A stretch of DNA of 64,000 nucleotides from Candidatus Magasanikiibacteriota bacterium (GTDB lineage Bacteria; Patescibacteriota; Patescibacteriia; Magasanikbacterales; 2-02-FULL-50-9b): assembly GCA_903893485.1 (NCBI GenBank), contig CAITMK010000012.1, positions 83,469 through 147,468 on the forward strand, in the 5' to 3' direction. Each line of letters opens with the position of its first letter. Within the stretch, counting starts at the first letter, position 1. Below, one piece after another: positions 1,015-43,254 of the stretch. The position numbers were made by a program, and so were the translations under genes. The notes beneath the pieces were generated by a model, which was not told the DNA's origin, ran no database searches, and saw only the letters and a program-made list of their open reading frames with translations.

Positions 1015-4000
1015 ATGTCAGAAATGCCAAAGGCCTACGAGCCACAACAATTTGAAGATTCAATTTACGCCCGCTGGGAAGAATCCGGCGCGTTTATTCC
1101 AGAAAATTTGCCTGATTTTGCAACGCGCAAACCGTACACCATTATGCTGCCGCCGCCAAACGCAACGGGCACACTGCATGTGGGGCATTCAACCATGTTG
1201 GCCGTGCAAGACGCGCTGATTCGGTTTAATCGCATGAATGGCAAGCGCGCACTGTGGCTTCCGGGTACGGACCACGCGGCTTTGGCGACTCAAAATAAAG
1301 TTGAAAAAGATTTATTTAAAAACGAAAAAATAACGCGTCATGATTTAGGTCGCGAAGAATTGCTGAAGCGTATTGATGTGTTCGTAGAAAAAAATCGTGA
1401 CCGCATGACATTTCAAATGCGCAAAATGGGTTCGTCTCTCGATTGGTCGCGTGAAGCATTTACACTCGATGAGCCTCGTTCACGCGCGGTGCGTTTGGTG
1501 TTCAAACAAATGTTTGATGATAAATTAATTTATCGTGGCAATCGCGTGATTAACTGGTGTTCACGCTGCGCCTCAACGTTGTCGGATGACGAGCTCGGAA
1601 CCAAAACGCGCAAAGCAGTTTTGTATTCTTTCAAGTACGCCAAAGATTTTCCAATCACGATTGCATCAACGCAGCCAGAAACCAAATTGGGTGATACTGG
1701 TGTTGCGGTGTATCCGGGCGACGCACGCTACGAAGCACTTGTTGGAAAAACAATTGATGTGGATTTCGGCGGGCAGGGTGGATCGAAATTAAAAATTCAG
1801 ATCATTGCAGATCACGGTGTTGAAAAAGATTTTGGCACGGGCGCGCTTGGTGTAACACCGGCGCACAGCATGGTGGATTACGCACTCGCGATGAATCATA
1901 ATTTGCCACTTGTACAAATTATTGGCGAGGACGGCCTTATGACAGCTGCTGCTGGCAGCGCATACGAAGGACTCACGATTGCAGAGGCTCGTGAGAAAGT
2001 GGTGGCATGGCTGCGCGCAGAAAACTTAATTGAAAAAGAAGAAGAGATTGAACAAAATGTTCCAATCTGTGAACGATGCGAAACAGAAATAACACCGCTG
2101 CCAAAATTGCAGTGGTTTGTAAGCGTGGAAAACAAATTTGCATTTCGCGAATCAACGCGTGCGCCAGTTGCAGGCATTGCTGCAGGCTCACAAATCTCGC
2201 TCAAGGATTCAATGCGCCACGTTGTTGAAACAAAACAAATTAAAATTGTTCCAGAGCGTTTCGAAAAAACATATTTTCATTGGATCAATAATTTGCGCGA
2301 TTGGTGCATCTCTCGTCAGTTGTGGTACGGGCATCGCATTCCTGTGTGGTATTGCGCCGCGCCAAAAACAGAAAAATGTGCCGAAGCAGTTTGTTCCATC
2401 GAAGACATTTCAGTTTGTCAGCATTGTGGCGGCGTTGCAGAACAGGACCCAGATGTTTTGGACACCTGGTTTTCTTCGGGTATGTGGACATTCACCACAC
2501 TCGGTTGGCCATACACGCGTGTAATTTTTGTGCGTCATGGTGAAGCAGAAACAAATGTTGGTGATTTTTTAAATTCCGACGCTACAAAAGAGTATCATCT
2601 TACCGAGACTGGCCGCGCGCAAGTCGTGGCAACCGCAGAAAAATTAAAATTACAACACGTTGATGCAATTTTTGCATCGCCACTTTTGCGCACACAAGAA
2701 ACTGCAAAAATAATTTCTGATGCACTCGGATTGCCCGTAACCACCGAAGAATGTATTCGTGAAGCAGGGATGGGCGAGTTTGAAGGAAAGCTTACTGCAG
2801 AATTTGAGGCAATCATGGGCGATCGCGGTAATCCAGCAAACTGGATGCATTCGTCGCCAGGTGGCGCAGAAACATTTCAGGCGATTCGCGAAAGAACGCA
2901 TGGATTTTTAGATGAACTTATTAAAACACATACGGGTAAAACTATTGTGGTTGTTTCACATGGTGATCCAATCTGGGCAGCAGCATCGTTTGGAAAAAGT
3001 GGGGTGCTTTGGGATTCTGAGTATCCACAACGAGGTAGTTTTTACGTTCGTGAATTTGATACAACCGGTTCGCAAGTTGGCGACCTCAACACGTATCACC
3101 CAACCGATGTATTGGAAACTGGCTACGATATTATTTTTCAATGGGTTGCGCGCATGATTTTAATGTCCACGTACGCGCTTGGCGAGGTGCCATTCAAAAA
3201 CGTATATTTGCACGGCATGGTGCGTGACGAACAGGGCCGCAAAATGTCCAAGTCGCTTGGCAATGTGTTGGATCCGCTCGATGTGATTCCAAAATATGGC
3301 ACCGACGCAGTGCGCCTCGCGCTGCTCATCGGCCAGACGCCAGGCAACGACTTAAAAGTTTCCGAAGAAAAAATTGCAGGTTTCCGTAATTTCACCAACA
3401 AGCTGTGGAATATTTCGCGATTTATTTTGTCACAAGATGCAGCGTCACATTTGGTTTTGCGCGCCGACATCGACGACGAGTTGCTCACCACCATGGACAA
3501 GTGGATTTTGTCGCGCTTAGCTGGCGTTACCAAAACGGTTACCGAATCACTGCAAACATTTGCATTTTCGCGCGCCGGCGAAGCACTGCGCGATTTCACG
3601 TGGAATGAATTGGCAGATTGGTATTTGGAAGGCGCCAAAGTTGAGGGCGAAAAAGCAGAAATTTTGCAATACATTTTGCAGAATTTGCTGAAGCTGTGGC
3701 ATCCATACATGCCGTTTGTAACCGAAGCAATTTGGCAAAGCGCGTATGCATCTGGCGAAAAGGATTTTCTGATGATTGCAAAATGGCCAGACGAAACTAG
3801 CATGCCGTTGTACCCAGAAGCAGAAAAAGATTTTGCGCACGTACAAAATGTGATCGTGGCAATTCGTGCGCTGCGCACTGAGTACAAAATTGATGCAAAA
3901 GAAATAGTGCCCGTAACGATTATTACCAAATACAAAAGCACGCTTGCACAAATGCAACCAGTGATCGAACGCCTTGCGCGCGCTACATTATTATTCGCCG

Positions 4001-4269
4001 ATGCGGCACCAGCCGGCCAGCTTGCAACCGTGATTGAAGAGGGAACAATTACGATTCCAAAACCTGAGGCTGCAAATAACTCAGACGAACGCGGCGCGCT
4101 GGAAGCGGAAAAAGAAAATGTTGCACAATACATCGCAACGCTCGCAGCAAAATTAGCCAATGAAGATTTCTTGGCACGGGCGCCAGCGGCGGTGGTTGAA
4201 AAGGAGCAGGGCAAGTTACGCGAAGCGCGGGAAAAGCTGGCTGCGATTGAAGATCGGCTTGGCGCATAA
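1015..4269 (+). CDS. valS: valyl-tRNA synthetase carrying an internal histidine-phosphatase domain insertion
   Basis: Class I aaRS motifs: PPPNATGTLHVGHS (HIGH) and KMSKSLGNV (KMSKS). ValRS-type core with CP1 editing region, WCISRQLWYGHRIPVWYC, and a C-terminal coiled coil. Start chosen at the ATG at 1015 (MSEMPKAYEPQQFEDSIYARWEE...); the ORF is open from 670 but the upstream part looks non-coding. An in-frame insert of about 195 aa lies between the conserved ...DTWFSSGMWTFTTLGWP and YHPTDVLETGYDIIFQWVARMI blocks. Confidence 0.9.
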   Translation: MSEMPKAYEPQQFEDSIYARWEESGAFIPENLPDFATRKPYTIMLPPPNATGTLHVGHSTMLAVQDALIRFNRMNGKRALWLPGTDHAALATQNKVEKDLFKNEKITRHDLGREELLKRIDVFVEKNRDRMTFQMRKMGSSLDWSREAFTLDEPRSRAVRLVFKQMFDDKLIYRGNRVINWCSRCASTLSDDELGTKTRKAVLYSFKYAKDFPITIASTQPETKLGDTGVAVYPGDARYEALVGKTIDVDFGGQGGSKLKIQIIADHGVEKDFGTGALGVTPAHSMVDYALAMNHNLPLVQIIGEDGLMTAAAGSAYEGLTIAEAREKVVAWLRAENLIEKEEEIEQNVPICERCETEITPLPKLQWFVSVENKFAFRESTRAPVAGIAAGSQISLKDSMRHVVETKQIKIVPERFEKTYFHWINNLRDWCISRQLWYGHRIPVWYCAAPKTEKCAEAVCSIEDISVCQHCGGVAEQDPDVLDTWFSSGMWTFTTLGWPYTRVIFVRHGEAETNVGDFLNSDATKEYHLTETGRAQVVATAEKLKLQHVDAIFASPLLRTQETAKIISDALGLPVTTEECIREAGMGEFEGKLTAEFEAIMGDRGNPANWMHSSPGGAETFQAIRERTHGFLDELIKTHTGKTIVVVSHGDPIWAAASFGKSGVLWDSEYPQRGSFYVREFDTTGSQVGDLNTYHPTDVLETGYDIIFQWVARMILMSTYALGEVPFKNVYLHGMVRDEQGRKMSKSLGNVLDPLDVIPKYGTDAVRLALLIGQTPGNDLKVSEEKIAGFRNFTNKLWNISRFILSQDAASHLVLRADIDDELLTTMDKWILSRLAGVTKTVTESLQTFAFSRAGEALRDFTWNELADWYLEGAKVEGEKAEILQYILQNLLKLWHPYMPFVTEAIWQSAYASGEKDFLMIAKWPDETSMPLYPEAEKDFAHVQNVIVAIRALRTEYKIDAKEIVPVTIITKYKSTLAQMQPVIERLARATLLFADAAPAGQLATVIEEGTITIPKPEAANNSDERGALEAEKENVAQYIATLAAKLANEDFLARAPAAVVEKEQGKLREAREKLAAIEDRLGA
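2512..3093 (+). other. inserted histidine phosphatase (PGAM/SixA/CobC-like) domain inside valS
   Basis: Insert sequence YTRVIFVRHGEAETN...SPLLRTQETA...GEFEG...VVVSHGDPIW. It carries the RHG catalytic-His motif, the SPL-x-R-x-x-TA motif and the distal SHG His motif typical of histidine phosphatase branch 1. It is flanked in frame by conserved ValRS Rossmann-fold blocks. Confidence 0.75.
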
Positions 4270-4296
4270 GCGGCATTGACTTTTTACCAAAAATCC

Positions 4297-4326
4297 CGTA
4301 GGGTGGCTGAAGCGCCACCCTTTTTG
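4297..4326 (+). terminator. rho-independent terminator after valS
   Basis: Stem gggtggc / gccaccc with a short loop, followed by ttttt. Confidence 0.6.
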
Positions 4327-4332
4327 GCGTAA

Positions 4333-5226
4333 ATGAGGTCTTTGATGAATTTGTATATTCGCTTTGACAGTGCATCGTCGGGCGCTTTTACCAATCTGCA
4401 CATCCTCGGCGGGGCTGAGGCCACCGTCAATGGCGAGCCGTTCGATGCCATGAATGAAACGCATCTCATGGAGGCGCTGAAGCTTGTGAAACTGCCGCGC
4501 AACGTGCGGCGCGGCCTTCTGAAAGTCGGGTTTTTCAAGCCCGATGAGCCGCATCTTGGAGATCCGAATGATCGCGTGATCGACTTCACGCACGCGATCG
4601 GGACTCCCGAAGGTGATTTCGAACCACTTGCGCCGCACACGGTGCGGGCACGCACGACGGCCAACATCGCCGTGGTGCGCAATCCCCGCAAGGGATCGAT
4701 GCAGTTCGCGGCGCGTGCCTCGGATTCCTGGATTGGCGTTTTGCGCGTTTACGCGCTTGGTCGCATCCAGCCGGTGGCCATGTTTTTCATCCATTTGGGT
4801 CGCGGCTGCGTGCTGCCACGGCAGGGCGGCAAGAGCGTCTTCGAGACCATCAAACAGTGGTGCCTCGATCAGGAGTTGGGCATCGTGCGGTCGGAGCTGA
4901 CGATTTCGGGTGGCATTGGCCCGTGCTGCTACCGGTTTGAGGACGCCACCAAGCTGAAGGGAGAAGTTTTCGCGCGTTACGGCGAAACGGGCGAGCGGAT
5001 CATCGGCAAATCCGGCGACGACCCCCGCGACTCGTTCGACATGCACGGCTTGATCCGCGAGGAGTTCGAAGGTGTGTTTGGGAAGATCCCTGAGCATCTC
5101 ATTCAGGTGTTCCAGGAACCGACCTTCTGCTGTGCGTGCCATCCTGCGGAGGGCAGCGATTTTGCGCTGAACTCCCAGGTGCGCTCGAAAAAAACGCGCC
5201 GCGACCTGTACCTCGTGGAAGTGTAA
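4333..5226 (+). CDS. hypothetical protein, possibly divergent YfiH/PgeF (DUF152) laccase-domain family
   Basis: 297-aa ORF in a GC-rich block. Motifs FFIHLGRGC and GGIGPCCYRFED resemble the YfiH HAGWRG and GPxIGPCCYEV blocks. The overlapping minus-strand ORF 4216..5142 is R-rich and looks antisense. Confidence 0.45.
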   Translation: MRSLMNLYIRFDSASSGAFTNLHILGGAEATVNGEPFDAMNETHLMEALKLVKLPRNVRRGLLKVGFFKPDEPHLGDPNDRVIDFTHAIGTPEGDFEPLAPHTVRARTTANIAVVRNPRKGSMQFAARASDSWIGVLRVYALGRIQPVAMFFIHLGRGCVLPRQGGKSVFETIKQWCLDQELGIVRSELTISGGIGPCCYRFEDATKLKGEVFARYGETGERIIGKSGDDPRDSFDMHGLIREEFEGVFGKIPEHLIQVFQEPTFCCACHPAEGSDFALNSQVRSKKTRRDLYLVEV

Positions 5227-5245
5227 CCACCGCCGCTACAACTCT

Positions 5246-5297
5246 GACCGCTCACGTTCTATTCGGAATGCGTGAGCGGTCGGGGTTCTTTTTTTTT
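5246..5297 (+). terminator. terminator-like hairpin plus T9 run
   Basis: 11-bp perfect stem gaccgctcacg / cgtgagcggtc (5246-5256 / 5271-5281) followed by ggggttc and ttttttttt. Confidence 0.5.
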
Positions 5298-5314
5298 GCC
5301 GCAGGCGCAAAAAT

Positions 5315-5356
5315 AAAAATCCACCTGGAGCCCGCGCGGATGCGTGGGGCAGGTGG
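5315..5356 (-). terminator. minus-strand terminator hairpin, repeat copy 1
   Basis: aaaaat-CCACCTG-gagcccgcgcggatgcgtgggg-CAGGTGG. On the minus strand the hairpin is followed by a T-run. It lies immediately downstream of the stop of gene 5385..5864(-). Confidence 0.6.
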
Positions 5357-5384
5357 GGCGTGTAGCAGGCGGCGTGGCGCCGGC

Positions 5385-5864
5385 CTATTCGGGGTTGGTG
5401 TCCAGGAAGGCGCTAAACAGCTCGAAGAGTGCAGTGAACACATCTGTCGGGTTGATCAGCAATCCGTTCTGGCCGATGTGTCGCTTCATCCACGACCGCA
5501 AGGAGCGCGGCGGCTCAAGCGACGAGATCATGAAGCGCATGATTGACCATTGCGCATCATCACTACATTCCAGCATGAGCGAATTCGCCATTTCGGGCTC
5601 GTCGCGCTTCATCCAGGTGAATGACACGCAGAAGCCGCAGTAGATCGTCGCGCGACGGTGGATCGAAATGCTGTGTCTGCACGCGTAACCGTGCTTCACG
5701 AGTGAAAAAATCGAGGCGTGTGGATCCTCGCTGTTTTTCCAGTCAGCATCCGGCCAAAGGCGCAATTGTTTCAGGGCATCCTCGAGCGTTTTTTGGGCGC
5801 GCAAGGTTTTTTCCGTCAGCGCAAATTGCTGCGGAGACGGGATGGTATGGGTCGTTGTGCTCAT
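5385..5864 (-). CDS. hypothetical protein (GC-rich cassette)
   Basis: Start set at MSTTTHTIPS, preceded by GGAGGAACC immediately 5' of the ATG on the minus strand. About 160 aa, Cys/His-containing, no recognised family. Confidence 0.5.
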   Translation of the reverse strand: MSTTTHTIPSPQQFALTEKTLRAQKTLEDALKQLRLWPDADWKNSEDPHASIFSLVKHGYACRHSISIHRRATIYCGFCVSFTWMKRDEPEMANSLMLECSDDAQWSIMRFMISSLEPPRSLRSWMKRHIGQNGLLINPTDVFTALFELFSAFLDTNPE

Positions 5865-5959
5865 GGGTTCCTCCGGGTTGAGAGCTTGGTAATAAGCTAC
5901 CATAATTTTCGATATTTGTCAAGCATCTTAGAGTGTTGCTTGGACGATTGAATTGATAA

Positions 5960-6001
5960 AAAAATCCACCTGGAGCCTACGCGGATGCGTGGGGCAGGTG
6001 G
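5960..6001 (-). terminator. minus-strand terminator hairpin, repeat copy 2
   Basis: aaaaat-CCACCTG-gagcctacgcggatgcgtgggg-CAGGTGG. 40 of 42 positions are identical to 5315-5356. Immediately downstream of the stop of gene 6022..6696(-). Confidence 0.6.
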
Positions 6002-6021
6002 TGAGCGATAAGCGTCTTCGA

Positions 6022-6696
6022 CTAGGTGTTCAACTTGTCGAAAAGCTGTTGCAGATGCTGGCCGTGATTGTGCTCGACGAACGTCGTCCAATTCTTGAGG
6101 CGATCGACATTGCCGAGCGCGTAGTAATGGTTCGAACGAGTGAACACGGCATCTCCGTCTGTTTTGGTATTGCAGTGACCGAGGTGTGTTAAGCTCACGA
6201 TGTGTTCCATTGAGAGTTTAAACCGTCGAATTCTCGATAGTTCGCTGTTTGGATCGACCATTTCCGCGCTGCCATCTTCGTCAATCCTCAGCTGGCCGCA
6301 ACGAGGCTCCTCGGCAACGTGCAGCTTCAAGCTCCAGGGCGCGGCCTTGGGTAGTTCATAGGCCATCAAGATGTGGAGCGAAAGTTCGATCGAGTCCCAC
6401 AAATCACCAACTGAATGATTGCAGCGGATGAACAGTGCCTTGCTTGCAATCGCCGCGTCGAGATCACTCAGCAATTTGCTGAGGTCGGTCGCGCGCTCAC
6501 GATAGCCTTCGAACGAACGATGGTCGTCGAGCGTGTGCCACAGCAGCACTGCATCAAGCACCTTGTCGCCAGTCGTGGCGCCCATGAGCAGCTTGTCGTG
6601 CAAACGCCGCCGCCGCTTGTACTGCCTCACGGCAGCCGAGCTCAGTCGCACTTCAACATTGCGGATCGTATTCAGAGAACGTTGCGTGATTGACAT
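6022..6696 (-). CDS. hypothetical protein (GC-rich cassette)
   Basis: Start set at MSITQRS with GGAGGG upstream. Contains His/Asp-rich stretches (WHTLDDHRS, CNHSVGDLWD, VEHNHGQH) that vaguely recall metal-dependent hydrolases, but no confident family assignment. Confidence 0.45.
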   Translation of the reverse strand: MSITQRSLNTIRNVEVRLSSAAVRQYKRRRRLHDKLLMGATTGDKVLDAVLLWHTLDDHRSFEGYRERATDLSKLLSDLDAAIASKALFIRCNHSVGDLWDSIELSLHILMAYELPKAAPWSLKLHVAEEPRCGQLRIDEDGSAEMVDPNSELSRIRRFKLSMEHIVSLTHLGHCNTKTDGDAVFTRSNHYYALGNVDRLKNWTTFVEHNHGQHLQQLFDKLNT

Positions 6697-6796
6697 TGCT
6701 TGGGCCCTCCATTGGCCTGGGAGCATTTAATCATGAGAGTGTGCGATTGTCAATCCTCCCGCTTTCCGCTATTATGGCTTTATATCGAACGTTTTT

Positions 6797-8005
6797 ATGG
6801 CTCAAATCTCAACCGACAAGAAAAAAATTGCAGAATTGCTGGATCGTGGCGTTGCCGAAGTTATTGTGCGCGAGGATTTGGAAAAGAAATTGGCAAGCGG
6901 CCAGCAGCTGCGCGTGAAATTGGGTATTGATCCAACGTCGCCGAATTTGCATCTGGGTCGCTCGATTCCGCTGCTCAAGTTGCGCGACTTCCAGCAGCTC
7001 GGCCACAAAATTGTTTTTATTGTTGGTGATTTTACGGGCATTATTGGTGACACGTCGGACAAAGACGCGGAGCGCCCGATGCTGACCGAAGAAACGATCG
7101 CGAAAAATTTGGAAACCTACGTGGCGCAGGCCGGCAAAATTATTAATTTGGACGAGGCGGAGATTCATTTTAATTCCGCATGGCTCGGCAAACTCGGCTT
7201 CAAGGAAATCGGCGAGCTCGCAAACATTTTTAGTGTCGCGGAATTTGTGGCGCGCGAAAATATCGCCAAGCGCCTGGACACCGGCAAGCGCGTGAGCCTG
7301 CGCGAAATGCTGTACCCGCTCATGCAGGGGTACGATTCCGTTGCGGTGAAGGCAGACGTTGAGCTCGGCGGCACGGACCAGCGATTTAATGTTTTGGCGG
7401 GCCGCACCATTCAGCCGCACTACGGCCAGGCGGCGCAGAATATTGTTTTGAATCCGCTGATTAACGGGTTGGATGGGCGCAAGATGTCGAGCAGTTGGGG
7501 GAATGCGATTAATTTATTGGATGCGCCGGCGGATATGTACGGCAAAGTGATGTCGTTGCTCGACGAATTGGTTTTGGAATATTTTATGTGCGCGACGCGT
7601 GTGGAGATGGCGGAAATTACTGCGATGCAGGAGCAATTGGCTGGCGGCACAAATCCGCGTGATCTGAAAATGCGTTTGGGTCGCGAATTGGTAACGATGT
7701 ACCATGGTGCGGATGCTGCAGCGGCAGCCGAGGAACATTTTAAAACTGTGCACCAGCAAGGCGGCGTGCCGGAGGATATTCCAGAAATGAAAGTCGATTG
7801 GACGCAGGCGCCACTCGTGGATGTTTTAGTTGAATCAAAATTGTGTTCAAGCAAATCCGACGCCCGCCGCCAGATTACGGAAGGTGGTGTGAAGGTTGAT
7901 GGCGTTGTGGTTGAGGATGTCGGGGCGATGGTTGATTTGAGTGGAAAGAGCGAAGGCGTTTTGGTGCAGAAGGGGAAGAGATGGTTTGTGAAAATAGTGT
8001 CTTGA
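6797..8005 (+). CDS. tyrS: tyrosyl-tRNA synthetase
   Basis: GIDPTSPNLHLGR (HIGH-like), KMSSSWGN (KMSKS-like), C-terminal S4 domain (ARRQITEGGVKVDGVVVED). Confidence 0.85.
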   Translation: MAQISTDKKKIAELLDRGVAEVIVREDLEKKLASGQQLRVKLGIDPTSPNLHLGRSIPLLKLRDFQQLGHKIVFIVGDFTGIIGDTSDKDAERPMLTEETIAKNLETYVAQAGKIINLDEAEIHFNSAWLGKLGFKEIGELANIFSVAEFVARENIAKRLDTGKRVSLREMLYPLMQGYDSVAVKADVELGGTDQRFNVLAGRTIQPHYGQAAQNIVLNPLINGLDGRKMSSSWGNAINLLDAPADMYGKVMSLLDELVLEYFMCATRVEMAEITAMQEQLAGGTNPRDLKMRLGRELVTMYHGADAAAAAEEHFKTVHQQGGVPEDIPEMKVDWTQAPLVDVLVESKLCSSKSDARRQITEGGVKVDGVVVEDVGAMVDLSGKSEGVLVQKGKRWFVKIVS

Positions 8006-8007
8006 AT

Positions 8008-8289
8008 ATGGCCTCCGAAGATTACGATAAAGCAAAACAAATCGTCAAAGATTATACACTTGGAAAAGTCAGTGGAGAAGATAATAAATTACGAGCAGCT
8101 TGCGCCTTGTTAGAATCTGAAACTTTTACTCTGATTGAGAAAGCGATTAGAGATGGGATTGATTCGAATGAATTGCTCGCCAAGTCTAACCAGGTATATT
8201 CCGACAGAATGCGTACATTAACATTTGCGCTTGTCCTGATCGGAGCTATACAAATCATAGTTTCCGTTACCGGATTATTTTTAAAATAG
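8008..8289 (+). CDS. small tail-anchored membrane protein, hypothetical
   Basis: ATG directly after the tyrS stop. Soluble N-terminal part with a C-terminal TM (LTFALVLIGAIQIIVSVTGLFL). About 32% GC. Confidence 0.45.
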   Translation: MASEDYDKAKQIVKDYTLGKVSGEDNKLRAACALLESETFTLIEKAIRDGIDSNELLAKSNQVYSDRMRTLTFALVLIGAIQIIVSVTGLFLK

Positions 8290-8292
8290 AGT

Positions 8293-9123
8293 ATGTACTT
8301 AATTCTTCTCGCAATCAGTTTTGTTTTAGCTCAGGTTATAGCTCGCGGACTTTTTGATAGAAATTGGAGAGTAAAAGCACAGGAAAATGTCGATAGCATT
8401 AAAAATGAAAAAATATTTTGGTACCTGATGAGTCAGAAAGTAAATGCGGAAAAAGTTTTTTCTGCTTATTTGAGGACGAGAAATCAAAAAGACACTATTA
8501 GGGTTGGCGATTGTGTAATGGACGAATCTTCCGATAAAAATAATTTAAGAGCAAATGATCTTGATATAAGCACAATCATCGAGGGTGATAATATCTGGGT
8601 GATCAATTCTGAATTGAATCCAAAAATAGAGCAGAAAGAAAAAACTATCGATGATTTGTTGACTGAAAACAGAGTCCTTTTTTCAGAGGAAGAAATTCGC
8701 AAAAGTTTCAAGGTATATTTTGATGAGCATTTTTGGAACATTGATGAAGTACAAAAAAACTATAATCAATTCATGATCAATCATCTCGATGCGCTTATAA
8801 AATGTGACAAGACGGGTTTGGGGATTTGGAAAGTTTTAAAGGATTTTTCAGTTAACGAGCACAAATTTGAATTCGATCGTTGGGGTGAAAAACATATTGA
8901 ATTTCTTGATTCTTTAAAATTGCTCCAAAATGATATAAAAAGTTTCGTGATATTTTTTATTTGTGAAAAAATTGAAAATCCTAAGACCCTAAAGAAGGTG
9001 CTTACAGAATGGCAGCAGTTACAAATGCTTAGATGGTGTGTGGTGGATTTTAGCTTGTGGGAAATTGGGAAGAATAAAATTCAGACAAGTGTGTGGCGGC
9101 TTACGACCTCTTTGTTTTTATAA
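8293..9123 (+). CDS. hypothetical membrane-anchored protein
   Basis: 276 aa with N-terminal TM (MYLILLAISFVLAQVIARGLF), then a K/E/D-rich soluble domain. AT-rich. Separated from its neighbours by 4 and 13 nt. Confidence 0.5.
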   Translation: MYLILLAISFVLAQVIARGLFDRNWRVKAQENVDSIKNEKIFWYLMSQKVNAEKVFSAYLRTRNQKDTIRVGDCVMDESSDKNNLRANDLDISTIIEGDNIWVINSELNPKIEQKEKTIDDLLTENRVLFSEEEIRKSFKVYFDEHFWNIDEVQKNYNQFMINHLDALIKCDKTGLGIWKVLKDFSVNEHKFEFDRWGEKHIEFLDSLKLLQNDIKSFVIFFICEKIENPKTLKKVLTEWQQLQMLRWCVVDFSLWEIGKNKIQTSVWRLTTSLFL

Positions 9124-9135
9124 ATTTAACTAAAT

Positions 9136-9991
9136 ATGGAGCCAAACACCTTTCTGAAACAACTCTTGTTTTCTACTGTTCGCATAGAGGCGGATACTGA
9201 TGACGCTGGAAAGAAAAGTGTTGGAACCGGTTTTCTTGTGGCAAAAAAGATAAGCGATTCCGAACAGCAAATTTTTCTCATAACCAATAAACATGTCATT
9301 GCAAGAGCAGATGAGGTTGGAAAAATTATAGGCAAATTTGGTAAGGCACGTTTTTCATTTGTAAAAAGTGAAAAATAATAGCCCGAAATTAGGTAATTCA
9401 GTTGTAATAAATGTCGATGCTTTAACGGATATGTTTTTCCAGCATCCGGATGAAAATGTTGATCTGGCGATATGCAATATTTCTGAGTTATACAACCAAT
9501 TAAATCAAGGTAAACAAAATATTTTTATCAGAACTATTCCTATCGAAATGATTCCAGCGGAAAATGAAAATTTTGATGCCATTGAAGACGTTTTGTTCGT
9601 TGGCTATCCAAACGGAATCTTTGATCAGAAAAATCATTTGCCAGTTATGAGACGAGGGATTACTGCCTCTGCGTATGATGTTGATTTTAATGGCGGTAAA
9701 AAATTTCTTATTGATGCGCAGGTTTTTCCTGGTTCAAGCGGAAGTCCTGTTTTTATCAAAGAGCAAAATTTAAGAAATGGTACATTAAAACTTGGTGTAG
9801 AAAGATATTTTTTTGTTGGCGTCATTTCAAAGGTATTTCATAGGATTGAAACCGGTGATCTGGTTGAATCAACCGTCCCCACAAGTTTTGTGGCTAATAG
9901 TTTTTCGATCAAACAGATGATTGGACTGGGTATTTGCGAAAAATCAAATCAAATTTTTGAGCTAATCGAACTCATAAATAGAGTCAGCTAA
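9136..9991 (+). pseudogene. cytoplasmic trypsin-like (S1/PA clan) serine peptidase, interrupted by a +1 frameshift in an A5 run
   Basis: ORF 9136..9378 carries the His block LITNKHVIA. ORF 9368..9991 carries the Asp block NVDLAICNI and the Ser block GSSGSPVF. The two halves overlap at gtgaaaaataatag in different frames. No signal peptide. Confidence 0.6.
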
Positions 9992-10023: not shown

Positions 10024-10491
10024 ATGCTCGCCTCATTTCTCCAATCCCTCACCACCTCCATCCTCGCGCTCTTCCGCCAAGACGCGAATTTTAAAAACAC
10101 CCTTCCGCTCCACGATTATCACGGGTTTCAAAAAGCGCGCATTCCATCTGCGACGCTCGCTGCAATCGCTGCGGCGCACACTGTGAATCCCGACGAGCTC
10201 CAGGCCGAATGGGTTGTGGTGACGCAGGATTTGTTGAGCGAAATTCATTGCCACCTGCGCTCGCGCGCGTATTGCATCGTGATGGGCGCGGCCGAGCATG
10301 TGCCGGACCCGGCGCGCGCGTTTGTGTTTTTGCATGATGCGTGGATGCCCGTCGTGGCCGGCCAAACCATCGACATCCCGCCCGGCGCTGCGCACGGCTT
10401 CACCATCCACCCTGGCGGCACGCTCCACTTTTTGTCCGTCCAAACTCCGCCTATCGAAAGCGCGGCAGGGGATGATTATGAAAAAGTGTGA
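10024..10491 (+). CDS. cupin-domain protein
   Basis: GQTIDIPPGAAHGFTIHPGGTLHFL matches the cupin motif. GC-rich (about 60%) insert between AT-rich flanks. Confidence 0.55.
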   Translation: MLASFLQSLTTSILALFRQDANFKNTLPLHDYHGFQKARIPSATLAAIAAAHTVNPDELQAEWVVVTQDLLSEIHCHLRSRAYCIVMGAAEHVPDPARAFVFLHDAWMPVVAGQTIDIPPGAAHGFTIHPGGTLHFLSVQTPPIESAAGDDYEKV

Positions 10492-11591: not shown

Positions 11592-12185
11592 ATGTACCAC
11601 GAAGAATCCAAGAATCTGCGCAAGTTCGCATACTGCACGCACACCGTGTTGGCTGCGAAACTACGCGAGGCAGCAGAGCAGAAGTTGTCGGAGGGGCGCG
11701 AACTCTTCCGTATCAATTTGAAGCTCGAGGTGACCACGAGCGTCGACAAGCTGATCGGTCTGCGGCGCGAGCTGCAAGCCTACGAAGCTGAATTCGACGG
11801 TCGCGAGCGACATTGGCTGCGCACCACAGAGCGTGCGCAACAACTCAAGGCAGCGATTTCCGACGAGTCGGAGTCGCTGACCGTGCAGGAGTTGGATGCG
11901 ATGAGTGATTGGTGCAAGGCCGGCGTTTTTGCGGCCGAGCAATTCTTGCGACCCTTCCGCGCGGCCAAGGCCGAGCGTGAGCGGATCGCAGCAGAGAAAG
12001 AAAAGGAGTGCGTCACTGCACGCGAGGCCGCGCGCCTGAAAGATGAACCCGGCCGTCACGCGCGCCGTGAATTCCAAGAGCAGCGGCTGCGCGAAAAGCA
12101 AGCGCAGCGTTTCGTGCACGAGTACCAGAGTCGTCCGCGGCGCTGGTACAAAGAGCAGAAGAAGTTGAAGCAGCAAACGCGCTGA
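11592..12185 (+). CDS. hypothetical charged coiled-coil protein (GC-rich cassette)
   Basis: 197 aa, R/E/K/Q-rich heptad-like sequence, strong RBS. The opposite-strand ORF looks antisense. Confidence 0.5.
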   Translation: MYHEESKNLRKFAYCTHTVLAAKLREAAEQKLSEGRELFRINLKLEVTTSVDKLIGLRRELQAYEAEFDGRERHWLRTTERAQQLKAAISDESESLTVQELDAMSDWCKAGVFAAEQFLRPFRAAKAERERIAAEKEKECVTAREAARLKDEPGRHARREFQEQRLREKQAQRFVHEYQSRPRRWYKEQKKLKQQTR

Positions 12186-12822: not shown

Positions 12823-14961
12823 ATGAAGTTCAACTTAGTATTTTCGAATTTATTTTTTGCGATTGCCGTGTCCGCCATTTGTTTTTTTGCCGCGCCAACA
12901 AAAACATTTGCAGCGGGCGAATTTAAAACAACGTGGAAATCTGATAATCCAGGAACATCGGCAAGTAATCAAATCACAATTCCAACCATTGTTGGACCTG
13001 CTTATAATTATCATGTTGATTGGGGAGATACAACCGCGAGCTCAACTGTAACCGGAACGGTGACGCACACCTATGCCGCACCGGGCACCTATCATGTTGC
13101 AATTACCGGAACATTTCCTGTAATTCAATTTGCAGACGCGGGCGATGCACAAAAACTTTTGTCTGTGGATCAATGGGGGACAAATGTGTGGGGTTCAATG
13201 TACGATGCTTTTTTTGGCTGCACCAATCTACACATTCTGGCAACTGACGCACCAAATCTTTCAGTCGCGGGCGACATGACATACATGCTGCGCGGCACCG
13301 CGGTGTCAACAGAAGATTTAAGTAGTTGGGATGTCAGCCATATCAGCGCCATGATCGGCACATTTCAAGATACCTTATTTAATGGAAACATTACCACGTG
13401 GAATACTGGCGCGGTTACCGACATGACTGGATTATTTTATAACGACTCAGCTTTTAATCAGGATATTGGGAATTGGAATGTCGGTGCGGTTACCGGCATG
13501 AGCGCCATGTTTTATTCGGCATCAAGTTTTAATCAGAATCTTTCGCTGTGGAATGTGGTGAATGTTACCAACATGAATGGTATGTTCAGAAACGCGAACG
13601 GATTTAATGGCACACTGGCGTGGGGAAATAAAACCGCGCACGTCACCGATATGAGCGCGATGTTTTTAGCAGCTTACGCTTTTAATCAAGACATTAGCGG
13701 TTGGGACACGCGCGCCGTTACCAGTATGACTGATATGTTTGCGTACGCCTATGATTTTAACCAAAATATTGGCTTGTGGAATGTGGGTGCGGTAACTGAC
13801 ATGGGTACGATGTTGTATCATGCAACATCATTTAATTACAGCCTGAGCAATTGGGATGTGAGCCACGTGACTAACATGCTTTCAATGCTTCAAGGCTGCA
13901 CCGCGTTTAATAGTGCGGTGTCGTGGGGAAGTAAAGTTTCGCACGTCACCAATTTTGAGGGAATGTTTACCGATGACACGTCATTTAATCAAGATGTCAG
14001 TGGTTGGGACGTGAGCGGTGCAACAGATTTGGCATATGCATTTACTGGCACCGCGTTTAATCAAAATCTTTCGCCATGGAATGTTGCAAACGTAACCACC
14101 ATGGATAATATTTTTACAAGCAGCGCGCTTTCCACCACCAATTACGATGCAATTTTGGCAGCGTGGTCCGCGGAAACATTGCAATCAAATGTTCTTTTTA
14201 GTGCGGGAAGTGCAACGTATTGTGCGGCTCGCGCAGGGCACGCGCGACTGCTTTCAAATTTTAGTTGGACAATTACCGATGGTGGGATCAATCCAACCTG
14301 TCGAACGATAACTTACACTGCTAGTGCAAATGGCAGCGTGACTGGCACCGCGACCCAATATTTAGAAAATGGTTTTACCTCGGCTAGTGTAACCGCAGTG
14401 CCAAATACGGGATATCGTTTTTTAAGTTGGTCTGATGGTCAATCGCAAAACCCGCGAACGGATGCAAATGTAACAAGTGATATTGCGGTCTCGGCAAATT
14501 TTTTGGCGCAAACCGTGTCAACGGGGAATACGATTTATTATAATGGATGCGCAGATCCAAAAGCATTAAATTATGATCCAATGGCCAGAAATATTTCGAC
14601 CATGTGTATGTATGCGCATACAGAAAATCCAGTAACTGTTTTGCAAAAAACAACTGATTTAATTGCACCAAAAACCGAAATCGAAAAACCAGTTTTTGAT
14701 TTTTCAAAAATAAAAAAACTGACCAAAGATTTAAAATTTGGAATGACCAGCGCAGAAATTAAAACAGTGCAAGATTTTTTGATTGCACAAAATAAAGGTG
14801 CGATGGCACAGCAATTAAAGACGCACGGCACAACAAATTATTTTGGTGCGTTAACTAAATCCGCACTTGCTGAATGGCAAAAAGCGTGTGGTATTATGCC
14901 AGCAGTTGGAAATTTTGGAGCACTTACCAGAAACTATATTAAATTGCTTAGCGCGTCATAA
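12823..14961 (+). CDS. secreted DUF285/BspA-like repeat surface protein with C-terminal peptidoglycan-binding domain
   Basis: Signal peptide. At least 9 repeats of the F..FNQ[DN]I..W[DN]V..VT.M..MF type. C-terminal GCADPKALNYDPMARNISTMCMYA motif and a PG_binding_1-like tail (VQDFLIAQNKG...NYFGALTKSALAEWQKACGI...GNFGALT). Confidence 0.7.
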   Translation: MKFNLVFSNLFFAIAVSAICFFAAPTKTFAAGEFKTTWKSDNPGTSASNQITIPTIVGPAYNYHVDWGDTTASSTVTGTVTHTYAAPGTYHVAITGTFPVIQFADAGDAQKLLSVDQWGTNVWGSMYDAFFGCTNLHILATDAPNLSVAGDMTYMLRGTAVSTEDLSSWDVSHISAMIGTFQDTLFNGNITTWNTGAVTDMTGLFYNDSAFNQDIGNWNVGAVTGMSAMFYSASSFNQNLSLWNVVNVTNMNGMFRNANGFNGTLAWGNKTAHVTDMSAMFLAAYAFNQDISGWDTRAVTSMTDMFAYAYDFNQNIGLWNVGAVTDMGTMLYHATSFNYSLSNWDVSHVTNMLSMLQGCTAFNSAVSWGSKVSHVTNFEGMFTDDTSFNQDVSGWDVSGATDLAYAFTGTAFNQNLSPWNVANVTTMDNIFTSSALSTTNYDAILAAWSAETLQSNVLFSAGSATYCAARAGHARLLSNFSWTITDGGINPTCRTITYTASANGSVTGTATQYLENGFTSASVTAVPNTGYRFLSWSDGQSQNPRTDANVTSDIAVSANFLAQTVSTGNTIYYNGCADPKALNYDPMARNISTMCMYAHTENPVTVLQKTTDLIAPKTEIEKPVFDFSKIKKLTKDLKFGMTSAEIKTVQDFLIAQNKGAMAQQLKTHGTTNYFGALTKSALAEWQKACGIMPAVGNFGALTRNYIKLLSAS

Positions 14962-14971
14962 TAAAAAAATA

Positions 14972-15009
14972 CCTACCCGACGTGCCTTACGGGGCTCGTG
15001 GGGTAGGGT
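14972..15009 (-). terminator. minus-strand terminator hairpin
   Basis: cctacccgacg / cgtggggtagg stem (1 mismatch). Flanked 5' on the plus strand by an A7 run, which is a T-run on the minus strand. Directly downstream of the stop of 15040..15696(-). Confidence 0.5.
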
Positions 15010-15039
15010 TTGAAACTGCTGTGTCCGGCCGAAGTTCGG

Positions 15040-15696
15040 CTAGATCGCGGCAGCCGTCGTGGTGATGCGGCCGTGCTGGTCAGCCAAGGTGCGCGCGAGC
15101 ATCAGGTCCGGGATCTTGGGGAACTGGGGTTCCCAATACCACCACTGATTGCTCGTGGGCATCGGGCCGTGGCGATGCGCCAGCTTGTGGAACACCTGCT
15201 GCAGGATGCGGGGCTGCATGCTCGTGAGACCTGCCAGCATGATGCGCTTGAAGTATTGCCGCTCCATGATTGCAGTCGTCTTGAGCACCTGAGTCCAGCC
15301 GAAGTAGGGCGCCAGCTGCCGCGCGGCACTGCACATCTCGAGCGAGTCAAAGATCTTCGCGTCGGTGAGGCGTTCGTCGGACCGGCAGATCATCAGCGTT
15401 TCGCGGATGTTGTCCGCGGCCGGCTGCACCTGCTCCATGATCGCATTTTCAATCTCGGACCGCTCATTCGGCAGAATGCCGGTGGTGCAGATGTGGATCT
15501 GCGACGGCGTGCACTGGTAGGCCACGTGCCGCAGCAGCAGGTTCCCCAGCGCGAACGCCATGCGCTTGCGCGACTTGGAACCGGGCTGTTTGTAGGAAAA
15601 CGCGGCCATCATCGCCAGGAAACTCTCCAAGGTCGTTTGACCCATGTCGGTTTCCATCTCTTCTGCAATCGCCGGAAGTGCCAAAGTTTTTTTCAT
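15040..15696 (-). CDS. hypothetical protein (GC-rich cassette)
   Basis: 218-aa ORF with protein-like composition. The overlapping plus ORF 15010..15699 is R/G/H-rich and looks antisense. Confidence 0.45.
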   Translation of the reverse strand: MKKTLALPAIAEEMETDMGQTTLESFLAMMAAFSYKQPGSKSRKRMAFALGNLLLRHVAYQCTPSQIHICTTGILPNERSEIENAIMEQVQPAADNIRETLMICRSDERLTDAKIFDSLEMCSAARQLAPYFGWTQVLKTTAIMERQYFKRIMLAGLTSMQPRILQQVFHKLAHRHGPMPTSNQWWYWEPQFPKIPDLMLARTLADQHGRITTTAAAI

Positions 15697-16824: not shown

Positions 16825-16884
16825 TATAGTAAATCGAGTGCTGGTTCATCCACATCAAGCAGCCCATACTAAAGGAGGTGGGAG

Positions 16885-17079
16885 ATGCTGAGAGTGTATG
16901 TAACGTCCAAGGGCGAAGGGCTTTTGCAAGTCGAATTGCGTCTCATCGCGCAGCTCCGTGTGCAGGAACTCGAGGCAAAACTCGGGAAACTGTCGCATCG
17001 GAATCGCGAAGCAGAGATCGAGCGCGAAATTCGAAGGCTCCGTCGAGAACGCTATCTTAATAAGGAGGTAAAGCCGTGA
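16885..17079 (+). CDS. small charged coiled-coil protein, hypothetical
   Basis: 64 aa. Strong RBS AAAGGAGGTG 6 nt upstream. GC-rich. Followed by a perfect 12-bp-stem terminator. Confidence 0.45.
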   Translation: MLRVYVTSKGEGLLQVELRLIAQLRVQELEAKLGKLSHRNREAEIEREIRRLRRERYLNKEVKP

Positions 17080-17094
17080 TATCAAACCGGCGTC

Positions 17095-17135
17095 GGTGTG
17101 GTGCGCTCGCAGCTGCGCGCACCACACCATTTATA
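17095..17135 (+). terminator. rho-independent terminator
   Basis: ggtgtggtgcgc / gcgcaccacacc perfect 12-bp stem followed by atttatatt. Confidence 0.6.
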
Positions 17136-19341: not shown

Positions 19342-20100
19342 ATGTATCTGTATTTGTATGATTCGCTCCTCAAAGAGCGCCAGTACACGGCCGCTTTGAG
19401 CAATTTGGAAACCCAATTGCTTGATCTTGGAATTTCTGGAAAAATCGTACGACTTACGTCACTGTTGTCGCCGCGTCAAATTATCCAAGAAGAAATTCGC
19501 CGTAGCAAAGATTTAAAAACGGTAATTGTGGTGGGTGACGACACTGTGTTCACTAAAATTGTTCAATACGCTGCGGATTTACCGGTTACGTTTGGGTGGG
19601 TGCCAATTGGTCCAAAAACAGAATTGGCCACCCGATTTGGATTGCCCTATGGCGCCGCATGTGCGCCGATTTTGTCTCGCCGCCGCCTCATGAGTGTGGA
19701 TGTTGGTCAATTTAATCAATATTTTTTCATTGATTATTGCACCGTGCCGCTCTGTCACGTTACCATGGTGATCGACAATACCATCACGATTTCTGCAACC
19801 GAAGAAAAAATGAGTTGTCATGTGTGGAATATGGCGTCTCCAAAAAAAGGCGAGATGCCGCCCGGATATACGCCAATGCCCGATGATGGTCAGCTTGAAA
19901 TTGTGCTGCAGCCAATTGCTAAAAAATCTTTTTTTGGTTCAACGATTGCACCAGCAAGTATTTTTCCATTCACCGAAGTTAAAATGAAATTGGAAAAAAC
20001 AACGCCAATCGAAATTGACGGGCACACGGTTAAAGAAAATCAAATCACACTCCGCGTTTCCCCGCAGCCGTTAAAATTGATTGTGGGTAAGGCGGTCTAG
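19342..20100 (+). CDS. DAGK_cat-like (YegS/BmrU-type lipid kinase) domain protein, degenerate
   Basis: VIVVGDDTVFTKIV...VTFGWVPIGPKTELATRFGLP resembles the GGDGT...PlGTgNDfar block, with Gly-to-Asp substitutions. Confidence 0.45.
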   Translation: MYLYLYDSLLKERQYTAALSNLETQLLDLGISGKIVRLTSLLSPRQIIQEEIRRSKDLKTVIVVGDDTVFTKIVQYAADLPVTFGWVPIGPKTELATRFGLPYGAACAPILSRRRLMSVDVGQFNQYFFIDYCTVPLCHVTMVIDNTITISATEEKMSCHVWNMASPKKGEMPPGYTPMPDDGQLEIVLQPIAKKSFFGSTIAPASIFPFTEVKMKLEKTTPIEIDGHTVKENQITLRVSPQPLKLIVGKAV

Positions 20101-20117
20101 CATGATATACTGAGGGC

Positions 20118-41087: not shown

Positions 41088-41150
41088 CGCATAAGAAAAA
41101 AAAGGTTATTATCCGGGCACGTGGCCACTTTGGCCGCACAAGGAGGCCTC

Positions 41151-41633
41151 ATGCCGACTGGCATAGGTGAAGGTGTTCGAGTTATTGATTGTTCGGTACC
41201 GCTCAGGCAGATTCTGAGCGAGTTGGCGCAGAAGAGGAACGTGGTTTTGGCGCACGATGAAATGCGCAAACTCCCGTTCCACGTGCATCTGGGGGATTTC
41301 ATGAGTTATCCCGCGGATTTTACGGCGCGCAACTTGCGGGTGCTGCGGTTTAATCGGTTGTTTAAAACCAAGGATGAATTGCTCGCGATGATGGCGAAGC
41401 GTCATGGAAAACCGGCGAACGCATTCGCGCTGGCCGCCATATTGGAAGATTTGCTGCCGACCGCAGTGGATGGCCCGGTGATTGCCATCGGTTTTCGCGA
41501 ATTGGGGTCGATGCCGGAACAGGTGCTGCGCGCGCTTCCGTCGCACGACAAAACCCATTGGATCATCGATGTTGCGGCGCTCTATTCGGCGCTGGGCCCC
41601 GAGAACTTTTACCTCATCGTTGGAAATCGGTGA
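41151..41633 (+). CDS. hypothetical protein (GC-rich cassette)
   Basis: Start at MPTGIGE with AAGGAGG 6 nt upstream. The opposite-strand ORF 41109..41741 is R-rich and looks antisense. Confidence 0.45.
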   Translation: MPTGIGEGVRVIDCSVPLRQILSELAQKRNVVLAHDEMRKLPFHVHLGDFMSYPADFTARNLRVLRFNRLFKTKDELLAMMAKRHGKPANAFALAAILEDLLPTAVDGPVIAIGFRELGSMPEQVLRALPSHDKTHWIIDVAALYSALGPENFYLIVGNR

Positions 41634-41666
41634 GCAGTGTTTCGTCGGCGTCTTGCCATTTTGGCA

Positions 41667-41707
41667 GGGCGTCGGCTTTTTTAAATAAAAAAATTCCGCC
41701 GACGCCC
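41667..41707. terminator. GC-clamped hairpin with AT-rich loop between convergent genes
   Basis: gggcgtcggc / gccgacgccc 10-bp stem with a 21-nt loop ttttttaaataaaaaaattcc. Confidence 0.45.
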
Positions 41708-41748
41708 AAGGAGTGGGCGCGCGGCGGAGGTTGCAATGCAAGATCGAA

Positions 41749-42207
41749 CTACGCAGCGGGCTTTTTGGCGCGCGCGGCAGCGATCGTCATGTGCGTGGTG
41801 TGCTCATTCCAGCGTGGAATTTCTTCGAGCAGCTTGTTGAGCGCGGTTTCGCACAGGTGTTTAAAGAGTTCGCAGTCCTTAGCGCGGTCATCGGTGGCGC
41901 TCAGGTTCGTATGGACCGAGAGCCACCGCACAAACGCAAGATCCTCCGCTTCGGGCGACGTCTGAATGTGAATGCTGAAAAGCGGAAATGGCTTCCACCC
42001 GTGGTGCTCGAGCAGTCCCTCGGTGATGGGGATGAGGCGCAGATCCTTTCGCACCAAATCGCGCTCCAAAAGTAGCTGCATGGAGCGAAGTGCGCCGCGG
42101 GGCGTTTCCCAGGACAAAAGCTGCAAATCTCTTCGCATCGCCTCCGTGATGCGGTTTAGGCGGCGAACTTTCTGCAAATGATTGAATTCCTGCATTTCTG
42201 ACTCCAA
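41749..42207 (-). CDS. hypothetical protein (GC-rich cassette)
   Basis: 152-aa ORF with protein-like composition, while the overlapping plus-frame ORFs are R-rich. Start codon uncertain. Confidence 0.4.
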   Translation of the reverse strand: MESEMQEFNHLQKVRRLNRITEAMRRDLQLLSWETPRGALRSMQLLLERDLVRKDLRLIPITEGLLEHHGWKPFPLFSIHIQTSPEAEDLAFVRWLSVHTNLSATDDRAKDCELFKHLCETALNKLLEEIPRWNEHTTHMTIAAARAKKPAA

Positions 42208-42371
42208 CAGTACGGCGACTGTGGGTGTAGTTTTGCATTATGCGGTTGGTTTGTCAATGCAAAGGGTTACACAGCAACTTATATTTTTTAGCAAGAGATT
42301 GACATATAAGGCTCAATTCAGTACGCTGAAAATGCCAAATCATTGGCCGTTGTGAAAAGGAAGGTGGTTCC

Positions 42372-43192: not shown

Positions 43193-43212
43193 TCATCGCA
43201 TCATTCCTCTTC

Positions 43213-43250: not shown

Positions 43251-43254
43251 ATTG

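Follow-up and report, generated by a model that had tools for sequence, protein, structure and literature searches.

Between core genes, flexible islands and recombination hotspots of both a 'replacement' and an 'additive' kind have been described for marine bacteria. Here, we analyzed the interval between valS and tyrS, two essential aminoacyl-tRNA synthetase (aaRS) genes, in a 64-kb stretch of DNA (contig CAITMK010000012.1, positions 83,469 to 147,468; hereafter the window). In the window, valS ends at position 4269 and tyrS starts at 6797, with three open reading frames (ORFs), A, B, and C, between them. Judging from sequence similarity, the host is an uncultured freshwater member of Candidatus Magasanikbacteria (Patescibacteria, or candidate phyla radiation, CPR); its tyrS is 81–86% identical to Candidatus Magasanikbacteria metagenome-assembled genomes and approximately 60% identical to other Patescibacteria. 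In this group, genomic islands and gene exchange are reported to be common, with the exchange taking place mostly among Patescibacteria (PMC12455944). We find that the interval serves as a small accessory-gene slot that changes rapidly, a real but rather ordinary finding. The explanation that we favor, at a probability of roughly 0.6, is a flexible accessory-gene slot, as opposed to one imported block or a duplicated unit. The locus is a well-bounded example of a tiny CPR genome with a flexible accessory slot between two essential aaRS genes, and it overturns no current view.

The closest described systems are flexible genomic islands, including those of Patescibacteria (PMC12455944). Similar to these, the slot keeps the same fixed position between core genes, with different content in each relative, and it holds highly divergent versions of the same gene. 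Additionally, it is rich in orphans, atypical in composition, and devoid of mobility genes. In contrast, the slot is very small (2.5 kb, three genes) and is flanked by aaRS genes, not by a tRNA gene. Moreover, its promoter and terminator modules are better conserved than its ORFs, and its GC excess is common to tyrS.

The locus also resembles integron cassettes and clusters of attC sites lacking integron-integrases (CALIN). Each same-strand orphan ORF has an imperfect palindrome of nearly identical sequence behind it, a single ORF is bracketed by direct repeats, and an empty-site variant may exist. However, the R″ and R′ cores are missing; the stem bases are CCACCTG and CAGGTGG, and no GTTRRRY or RYYYAAC occurs in or beside either copy. 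attC sites run roughly 57–141 nt, whereas the hairpin here measures approximately 36 nt (repeat, 42 bp). In addition, a T-run follows the hairpin directly, as in a canonical terminator, and each ORF has promoter-like signals of its own. No recombinase family appears in the Pfam lists covering approximately 1–13, 13–21, and 29–51 kb of the window, and the window holds two such hairpins only.

Finally, the hairpins are similar to ordinary rho-independent terminators, with a GC-rich stem-loop and U-run 21–29 nt past the stop codon and a tail (UUUUUUUAUU) common to other terminators of the window. The difference is that two unrelated neighbors use a 95% identical hairpin, which recurs with compensatory changes in sister genomes. 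This conservation of sequence exceeds what terminators usually show.

The variable interval between valS and tyrS

At least 10 contigs, assembled independently from several stratified-lake samples, carry this identical three-gene arrangement. These contigs have the same junctions, which rules out an assembly chimera, and across them the island shows one single-nucleotide polymorphism, which is synonymous. Public gene calls on independent contigs give the same coordinates for A, B, and C. Together with the ORF table, they confirm one plus-strand and two minus-strand ORFs, as an earlier interpretation made from the letters of the window (the sequence-only reading) had described. The GGAGG-type ribosome-binding sites that it assigned to both minus-strand genes are also present, 5–9 nt ahead of the ATG (Table 1).

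In related Magasanikbacteria, valS and tyrS stay neighbors, with wholly different genes between them, and the proposal of a variable accessory region at this position therefore stands. The related locus L010 has six other genes between valS and tyrS. L011 has eleven, including an A homologue, two MazF/PemK toxins, GNAT, ASCH, and an NDP-hexose dehydratase (64% GC). For L009, a third gene set lies upstream of tyrS, and valS is not on that locus. Overall, the interval genes of L009–L011 include MazF/PemK toxins, GNAT, ASCH, and HTH proteins. In L090 and L095, valS is followed by a DUF218 gene on the minus strand and then by an A homologue. A-family genes adjoin valS or tyrS in at least five related contigs, with 30–50% protein identity.

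For L096 (GCA_026396555.1), tyrS is 95% identical to that of the window in coding DNA. The similarity between the two loci begins at window position 6713, which lies within the divergent tyrS/C promoter. The A homologue of L096 is 36% identical to A and closer to the A homologues of L090 and L011. Gene B is absent, and extra genes fill the slot, including an unrelated 276-aa gene ending in the same type of hairpin. The one known homologue of C is located in this interval (L096 2510–3181, minus strand); it is colinear, of the same length, and about 30% identical (tblastn, 3.7e-11; phmmer, 8.5e-16). Between the two loci, the hairpins are 83–85% identical, the 35-nt C leader (6703–6737) is 91% identical by blastn, and the divergent promoter module is 92.6% conserved from 6713 on, whereas the ORFs beside these pieces are 31–36% identical or replaced. 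The divergent promoter module is also duplicated within L096. We propose that the gene content turns over by homologous recombination, for which the conserved aaRS genes on both sides and the reused modules (promoters and terminators) would provide the anchors. Recombination at conserved modules would explain the 83–92% conservation of the non-coding pieces compared with ORFs that are 31–36% identical or replaced.

A solo MazF/PemK-like toxin gene (approximately 133 aa) lies directly upstream of tyrS in three relatives (L010 9467–9868; L011 9431–9832 and again 19983–20384; L096 4140–4547), with no obvious antitoxin gene ahead; it is not present in the window. The L096 gene is driven by the duplicate of the tyrS divergent-promoter module. 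Among the genomes of this clade (the window, L009, L010, L011, and L096), TyrS is much more conserved at the amino acid level (81–98%) than ValS (64%).

The interval also differs in base composition. Positions 4270–6780 have a GC content of 56.3%, compared with 47.2% for valS, 52.0% for tyrS, and 46.2% for the window. No other 2.5-kb stretch of the window is richer in GC (z = 3.2; 0.3% of such stretches attain this level) or deviates more in tetranucleotide usage. Thus, the shift reported earlier is real and a window extreme, but the figure of about 60% was overstated, and only A is close to it. As in a genomic island, atypical composition goes together with variable presence, the content being different in L009, L010, L011, and L096. 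The sequence-only reading had also treated valS and tyrS as a backbone of 48–50% GC. tyrS does not fit such a backbone; its GC content at third codon positions (GC3) is 0.61, compared with 0.33–0.45 in most genes. In the window (6797–8005) and in L009, L010, L011, and L096, tyrS has 52–57% GC (GC3 0.61–0.71), 8–11 points over its flanks; for 80 Patescibacteria loci, the difference between tyrS and its flanks is +1.3 ± 2.9 GC points. A-family genes have 56–63% GC (GC3 0.67–0.77) in every carrier genome, beside valS at 48–50%. Since this range is kept at only 30–50% protein identity, the GC-richness is old and maintained. Collectively, the GC-rich A family and the clade-wide GC-rich tyrS mean that composition alone is no proof of recent import, as had been suggested. 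They also caution against such an interpretation of a GC excess, which is here a stable trait of a gene family and of a conserved neighbor.

Table 1. Features of the valS–tyrS interval and other GC-rich ORFs of the window (SD, Shine-Dalgarno sequence).
Feature	Positions	Strand	Description
valS intrinsic terminator	4300–4326	+	AGGGTGGC-tgaagc-GCCACCCT then TTTTT; 31 nt past valS stop (4269)
Gene A	4345–5226	+	293 aa, 59.6% GC; predicted divergent YfiH/PgeF/YlmD (DUF152, Pfam Cu-oxidase_4) fold protein
Gene A intrinsic terminator	5240–5296	+	~21-bp stem then T9; −33.1 kcal/mol, z = −7.8 (RNA fold)
Hairpin copy 1, predicted gene B terminator	5308–5361	−	Repeat core 5315–5356; starts 29 nt past B stop
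Gene B	5385–5864	−	159 aa, 55.2% GC, GC3 0.71; strict orphan
Gene B expression signals	5870–5922	−	SD GGAGG 5870–5874; −10-like TAGCTT 5894–5899; −35 TTGACA 5917–5922; 17-nt spacer; read by eye
Hairpin copy 2, predicted gene C terminator	5951–6006	−	Repeat core 5960–6001; starts 21 nt past C stop
Gene C	6022–6696	−	224 aa, 54.7% GC; Arg-rich N-terminus, His-rich patches
Gene C expression signals	6706–6753	−	SD GGAGG 6706–6710; −10-like TAAATG 6724–6729; −35 TTGACA 6748–6753
tyrS promoter	6747–6775	+	TTGTCA, 17 nt, TATTAT; −35 overlaps gene C −35 on other strand
Other GC-rich ORFs	10024–10491, 11592–12185, 15040–15696, 16855–17130, 41109–43192, 49532–51199		GC3 0.60–0.84

Twin predicted terminator hairpins and competing explanations

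The duplicated 42-bp hairpin reported earlier was confirmed. The two copies are direct repeats 645 bp apart, identical at 40 of 42 positions; exactly two occur in the window, and 0 are expected in shuffles. Copy 2 differs from copy 1 at two adjacent inner-stem positions (5978–5979, TA versus CG). In each hairpin, the outer stem of 7 bp (CCACCTG/CAGGTGG) is separated by an asymmetric internal loop from an inner stem (7 bp in copy 1), with a U-run directly after; on the minus strand, the tail is AUUUUUAUUUUU after copy 1 and AUUUUUUUAU after copy 2. The minus-strand folds have energies of −23.0 and −19.9 kcal/mol (z = −3.2 and −4.4), and the hairpins of all three genes fold far better than shuffles (z −3.2 to −7.8); that of A differs from the twin copies and is stronger. 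With a GC-rich stem-loop and a U-run just past the stop codon (29 and 21 nt), both copies are predicted to be the minus-strand intrinsic terminators of B and C. The sense strand is the minus strand because the T-run decides it. We rejected a strand call based on G-U versus A-C pairing; in the window, folding is better on the plus strand, but the L096 copies show the reverse at other pairs. A consensus terminator scanner missed all three obvious terminators, and those of B and C were missed owing to the internal loop.

A covariance model (R1) was built from the two window copies and two related L096 copies and run with filters off. In the window, copy 2 scored 76.6 bits and copy 1 scored 73.3 bits, with the next best match at 19 bits. 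The weaker hits are generic hairpins with the genome-typical tail, several of them 3′ of other GC-rich ORFs. Outside the window, the model detected a pair of copies in L096, at 73.9 and 69.8 bits, and a single copy in L094, which scored 40.7 bits and lies 143 nt past an A homologue. In the corresponding interval of L009, L096, and L010, more diverged versions trail other genes on the minus strand. Among 4 sequences, 4 of 13 pairs are compensatory. Among 8 sequences, in an alignment that was fitted to the covariance model, 6 of 13 are compensatory and 94.7% of cells are paired, a level reached by 0 of 500 shuffles and compared with 30–43% in slid controls. The exact hairpin pattern has zero matches in GTDB representative genomes, JGI metagenomes, and IMG/VR, and Rfam contains no family for it; the loose CCACCTG...CAGGTGG pattern has one chance match, inside a coding region (L020). 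Collectively, these results indicate a small, clade-restricted, covarying family of predicted terminators and no ubiquitous repetitive extragenic palindrome (REP), as far as 64 kb shows. The twin hairpins are 95% identical inside the window genome, compared with 83–85% between genomes. The pair might have arisen from a recent local copy or from gene conversion of one terminator onto the neighboring gene.

B and C have only the terminator in common. No similarity links the two proteins (BLASTP, E = 1.5), and the repeat does not extend past the hairpin edges. These observations exclude gene duplication and, with it, the earlier suggestion that a gene-plus-terminator unit had been duplicated. For B, only the protein itself was found among 5.8 billion proteins. 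It has no match in Pfam, NCBIfam, PHROG, or PADLOC families, in the PDB, in viral sequences, or in related loci, and no signal peptide or membrane segment is evident by eye. It is called as a gene on independent contigs. Four features favor B as a real gene, namely a GC3 above GC1 and GC2, the GGAGG site, promoter boxes of the TTGACA type, and the terminator. Similarly, C found only itself in the word-indexed search of 5.8 billion proteins and nothing in the PDB or viral contigs, and JGI metagenomes contain no C family. The best Pfam, NCBIfam, PHROG, or PADLOC match for B or C is Cas11 (E = 0.015, 13 bits), which is noise. The His/Asp clusters that had been noticed in one minus-strand gene correspond to the His-rich patches HTLDDH and EHNHGQH in the C translation. 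B and C are probably cytoplasmic lineage-specific proteins.

Each of the three unrelated genes has its own hairpin-plus-T-run terminator, and each is probably its own transcription unit. For A, no convincing separate promoter was found, and it may be read through from valS. The −35 boxes of tyrS (+, TTGTCA) and C (−, TTGACA) overlap on the near-palindrome TTGTCAA (6747–6753). tyrS is without a Shine-Dalgarno sequence, and both B and C have a perfect GGAGG. A further promoter-like sequence on the plus strand (5878–5906; TTGAGA, 17 nt, CATAAT; 10/12) points into hairpin copy 2, antisense to C.

A possible empty site was observed in L006. This contig starts from the terminator of A, and its positions 1775–1842 join window 5321–5356 to 6002–6033, passing from a hairpin of the copy 1 type to the flank of copy 2 and skipping B (645-bp deletion). 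Recombination between the two repeats, removing B, would be expected to leave such a junction. L007 and KW2w3Ewz, the remaining short contigs extending this far, continue into the normal flank or into B, and every C-carrying contig also carries B. We rate the L006 junction as an artefact (of the de Bruijn graph, at the repeat) or a rare variant.

Other explanations of the interval were weighed against the flexible slot. In line with the horizontally acquired cassettes suggested by the sequence-only reading, A, B, and C could have arrived recently, in one or more cassettes, from a GC-richer foreign donor, with a composition that has not yet drifted to that of the host. The extreme composition, the nearly complete lack of relatives of B and C, the differences in the interval between relatives, and the islands and exchange reported as common in Patescibacteria (PMC12455944) are consistent with this. 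However, we consider it unlikely, because the GC-richness of the A family is an old trait, found in all of the at least five contigs beside valS or tyrS, and because the conserved tyrS has the same anomaly. Moreover, the searches revealed neither a donor nor an att repeat, a tRNA is absent within 15 kb, no integrase or transposase is among the annotated neighbors, viral contigs gave nothing, and B and C have no homologues outside the clade. Alternatively, a circular or linear molecule carrying B, its promoter, and a hairpin could have recombined with the C terminator (Campbell-type or integron/attC-like), leaving the 42-bp direct repeats around a losable 645-bp unit. The two copies flank B exactly, the L006 junction lacks B, the imperfect palindrome with its asymmetric internal loop is loosely like a folded attC, and the L096 slot has an unrelated gene with the same type of hairpin. 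This insertion is nevertheless improbable, since the B-less junction occurs once, at a contig end, where a graph artefact is at least as likely, and no attC core site is present in the hairpin. Additionally, no integrase is among the annotated neighbors, and B has its own promoter-like signals, unlike typical integron cassettes. An extended version, in which the conserved hairpin and TTGTCAA promoter modules act as portable recombination sites of an integrase-less cassette system that swaps whole ORFs, with B and one hairpin as a 645-bp mobile unit and L006 as the empty site, is a long shot.

It is very unlikely that B and C form a toxin-antitoxin or anti-phage defense module in a hotspot for such genes. 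The interval of the relatives does carry several MazF/PemK, GNAT, ASCH, and HTH genes, and B and C are small, fast-evolving neighbors encoded on one strand. However, they have no credible domain match, C is separated from B by a full terminator and a promoter, which argues against an operon, and the C homologue of L096 occurs without B. The possibility that the 42-bp element is a genome-wide palindrome, similar to REP sequences or miniature inverted-repeat transposable elements and not tied to these genes, is slight indeed. It is a highly conserved imperfect palindrome in intergenic DNA, and 64 kb of the genome was examined. Against this, the window has two strong matches, below which only generic hairpins with T-runs are found; no exact match exists in the three public collections searched; and all family members are found immediately 3′ of minus-strand ORFs, with a T-run after the hairpin. 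Within the window, the element is no ubiquitous terminator or REP sequence, an outcome that the earlier reading had said would refute its idea.

Several points weigh against the flexible slot. L096 is known from a 5.6-kb contig, and its 95% identity may be confined to tyrS; an exchange of tyrS would weaken the contrast between coding and non-coding pieces. The promoters of B and C were read by eye, have weak −10 boxes, and were missed by a consensus scan. The B-less junction of L006 is single and occupies the last 32 bp of the contig, and no recombination event was directly observed. Furthermore, the apparent replacement of a catalytic Cys by Ser in gene A, described below, comes from a motif alignment and an insignificant hhalign comparison.

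Gene A and the YfiH/PgeF fold

Gene A itself has no Pfam (E ≤ 1), NCBIfam, PHROG, or PADLOC match and no match in viral contigs, and the word-indexed search of 5.8 billion proteins found A and one protein at 41% identity. An exhaustive HMMER search seeded with those two sequences gave 15 A-family representatives (50% clustering). Of 13 aligned relatives, three match PF02578 singly (P0016, 47.9 bits, cut-off 22.9; P0009, 20.7; P0008, 13.8). The A-family profile matched only YfiH, YlmD, and purine nucleoside phosphorylase entries in the PDB (E 1e-3 to 0.15), with 7fbg and 6dzd as the best (E = 1e-3 to 3e-3). For the profile of the close A subfamily alone, the same four entries are at the top, but with E = 0.3–1.3. 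Searching the PDB with the single sequences of A, B, and C gave noise only, such as Rab12.

The AlphaFold2 (AF2) model of A, built from the 13-sequence alignment, has a mean predicted local distance difference test score (pLDDT) of 83 and a predicted template modeling score (pTM) of 0.87. A model from a 2-sequence alignment was unusable (pLDDT 34). A Foldseek search of the PDB with the former model gave a YfiH/DUF152/YlmD structure for each of the 11 best hits (E 2.3e-9 to 1.7e-6, probability 1.00, template modeling (TM) score 0.47–0.68), and the hit after them is unrelated (E = 8e-4, TM 0.24). Collectively, the predicted fold identifies A as a very divergent YfiH/PgeF/YlmD-fold protein. A has the DUF152 fold according to AF2 and Foldseek, whereas its own sequence does not reach the PF02578 gathering score. 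The faint YfiH/PgeF motifs noticed earlier in the plus-strand gene were right, as indicated by the family profile, the PF02578-matching relatives, and the fold.

Compared with characterized members (PF02578; E. coli 7w1g, B. licheniformis 6dzd, Geobacillus 6t0y/6t1b), A would have the same fold, and it keeps the C-terminal motifs GxxIGxCCY, CTxC, and S..R in the same order. In contrast, A is linked to PF02578 only via intermediates and the family profile, and its family has an invariant Cys155 of its own and an N-terminal part that is approximately 50 aa longer. The invariant residues of the family are D127, H150, G152, C155, S164, G190, C194, C195, Y196, E240, and C262, and Cys265 is nearly so. 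His150 is equivalent to H124, the His of the HxGxxG motif. However, the position of the catalytic Cys (C107 in E. coli YfiH; 7w1g is the C107A mutant) is occupied by Ser128 in A and the close subfamily, where the 'ADC' motif reads ADS. The C107 equivalent stays Cys in the more distant members P0010, P0012, P0013, and P0016. Additionally, no conserved His aligns with E. coli H71 in the 15-member family. At the level of this motif alignment, A thus lacks the complete His-Cys-His site (E. coli H71, C107, and H124), and we provisionally regard the catalytic Cys as replaced by Ser. Alignments of the A family with E. coli YfiH alone or with a 2-sequence canonical alignment by hhalign were not significant, and MAFFT misaligned A with E. 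coli YfiH.

The activity of A is probably altered relative to the YfiH enzymes. Known activities of this family are purine nucleoside conversion (phosphorylase/deaminase) and UDP-MurNAc-peptide editing, which are putative for A. The most likely role of A is in salvage or cell-envelope metabolism, where it would use altered chemistry on a purine nucleoside or on a substrate resembling a UDP-MurNAc-peptide. The family represents a previously unrecognized branch of the YfiH/PgeF fold, with 15 representatives and, in the sub-branch of gene A, an apparent Ser in place of the catalytic Cys. With this substitution, the reaction catalyzed in nucleoside salvage or in the editing of cell-wall precursors may be a different one; both processes are central to symbiotic CPR lifestyles.

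Flanking genes and other regions of the window

On the valS side (1030–4269), a complete histidine-phosphatase domain (PF00300, phosphoglycerate-mutase-like, approximately 195 aa) is encoded at about 2512–3096. It is inserted in the catalytic core of ValRS between the 'LGWPY' and 'HPTDVLETGYDIIF' motifs, and its RHGE and SHG catalytic motifs are intact. The same insertion occurs in at least eight other Patescibacteria loci (33–47% identity), and a quick literature search found no description of it.

In tyrS, positions 7273–7339 show nine synonymous differences in 67 bp compared with five same-population contigs; no other difference exists across 9 kb between the window and those contigs. L096 has the base of the window at six of the nine sites and that of the other strain at the remaining three. 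From these patterns, the stretch looks like a short recombination or gene-conversion tract. Directly past tyrS, positions 7981–9991 form an AT-rich block (35% GC) of four small plus-strand ORFs, one with a Trypsin_2-like peptidase domain. These ORFs have no homologues in L010 or L011, which have their own unrelated AT-rich genes (31–38% GC) at this place. Judging from these sequences, tyrS is bordered on its far side by a second variable slot.

Similar GC-rich inserts were also proposed for other parts of the window. Most of these were seen in the composition profile and ORF tables (Table 1). The ORFs have no meaningful Pfam match, except a Dictyostelium-type Cys-rich repeat in 49532–51199. 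Several end in their own hairpin and T-run (e.g., 14958–15011, 43210–43256, and 51215–51266). In some cases, the strand and frame are ambiguous, with long ORFs overlapping on both strands.

Finally, a giant ORF of 4081 aa occupies 27063–39308. It contains many internal GGFVGG-type repeats and weak PA14, fn3, and PG_binding_1 matches, and its product is probably a surface protein.

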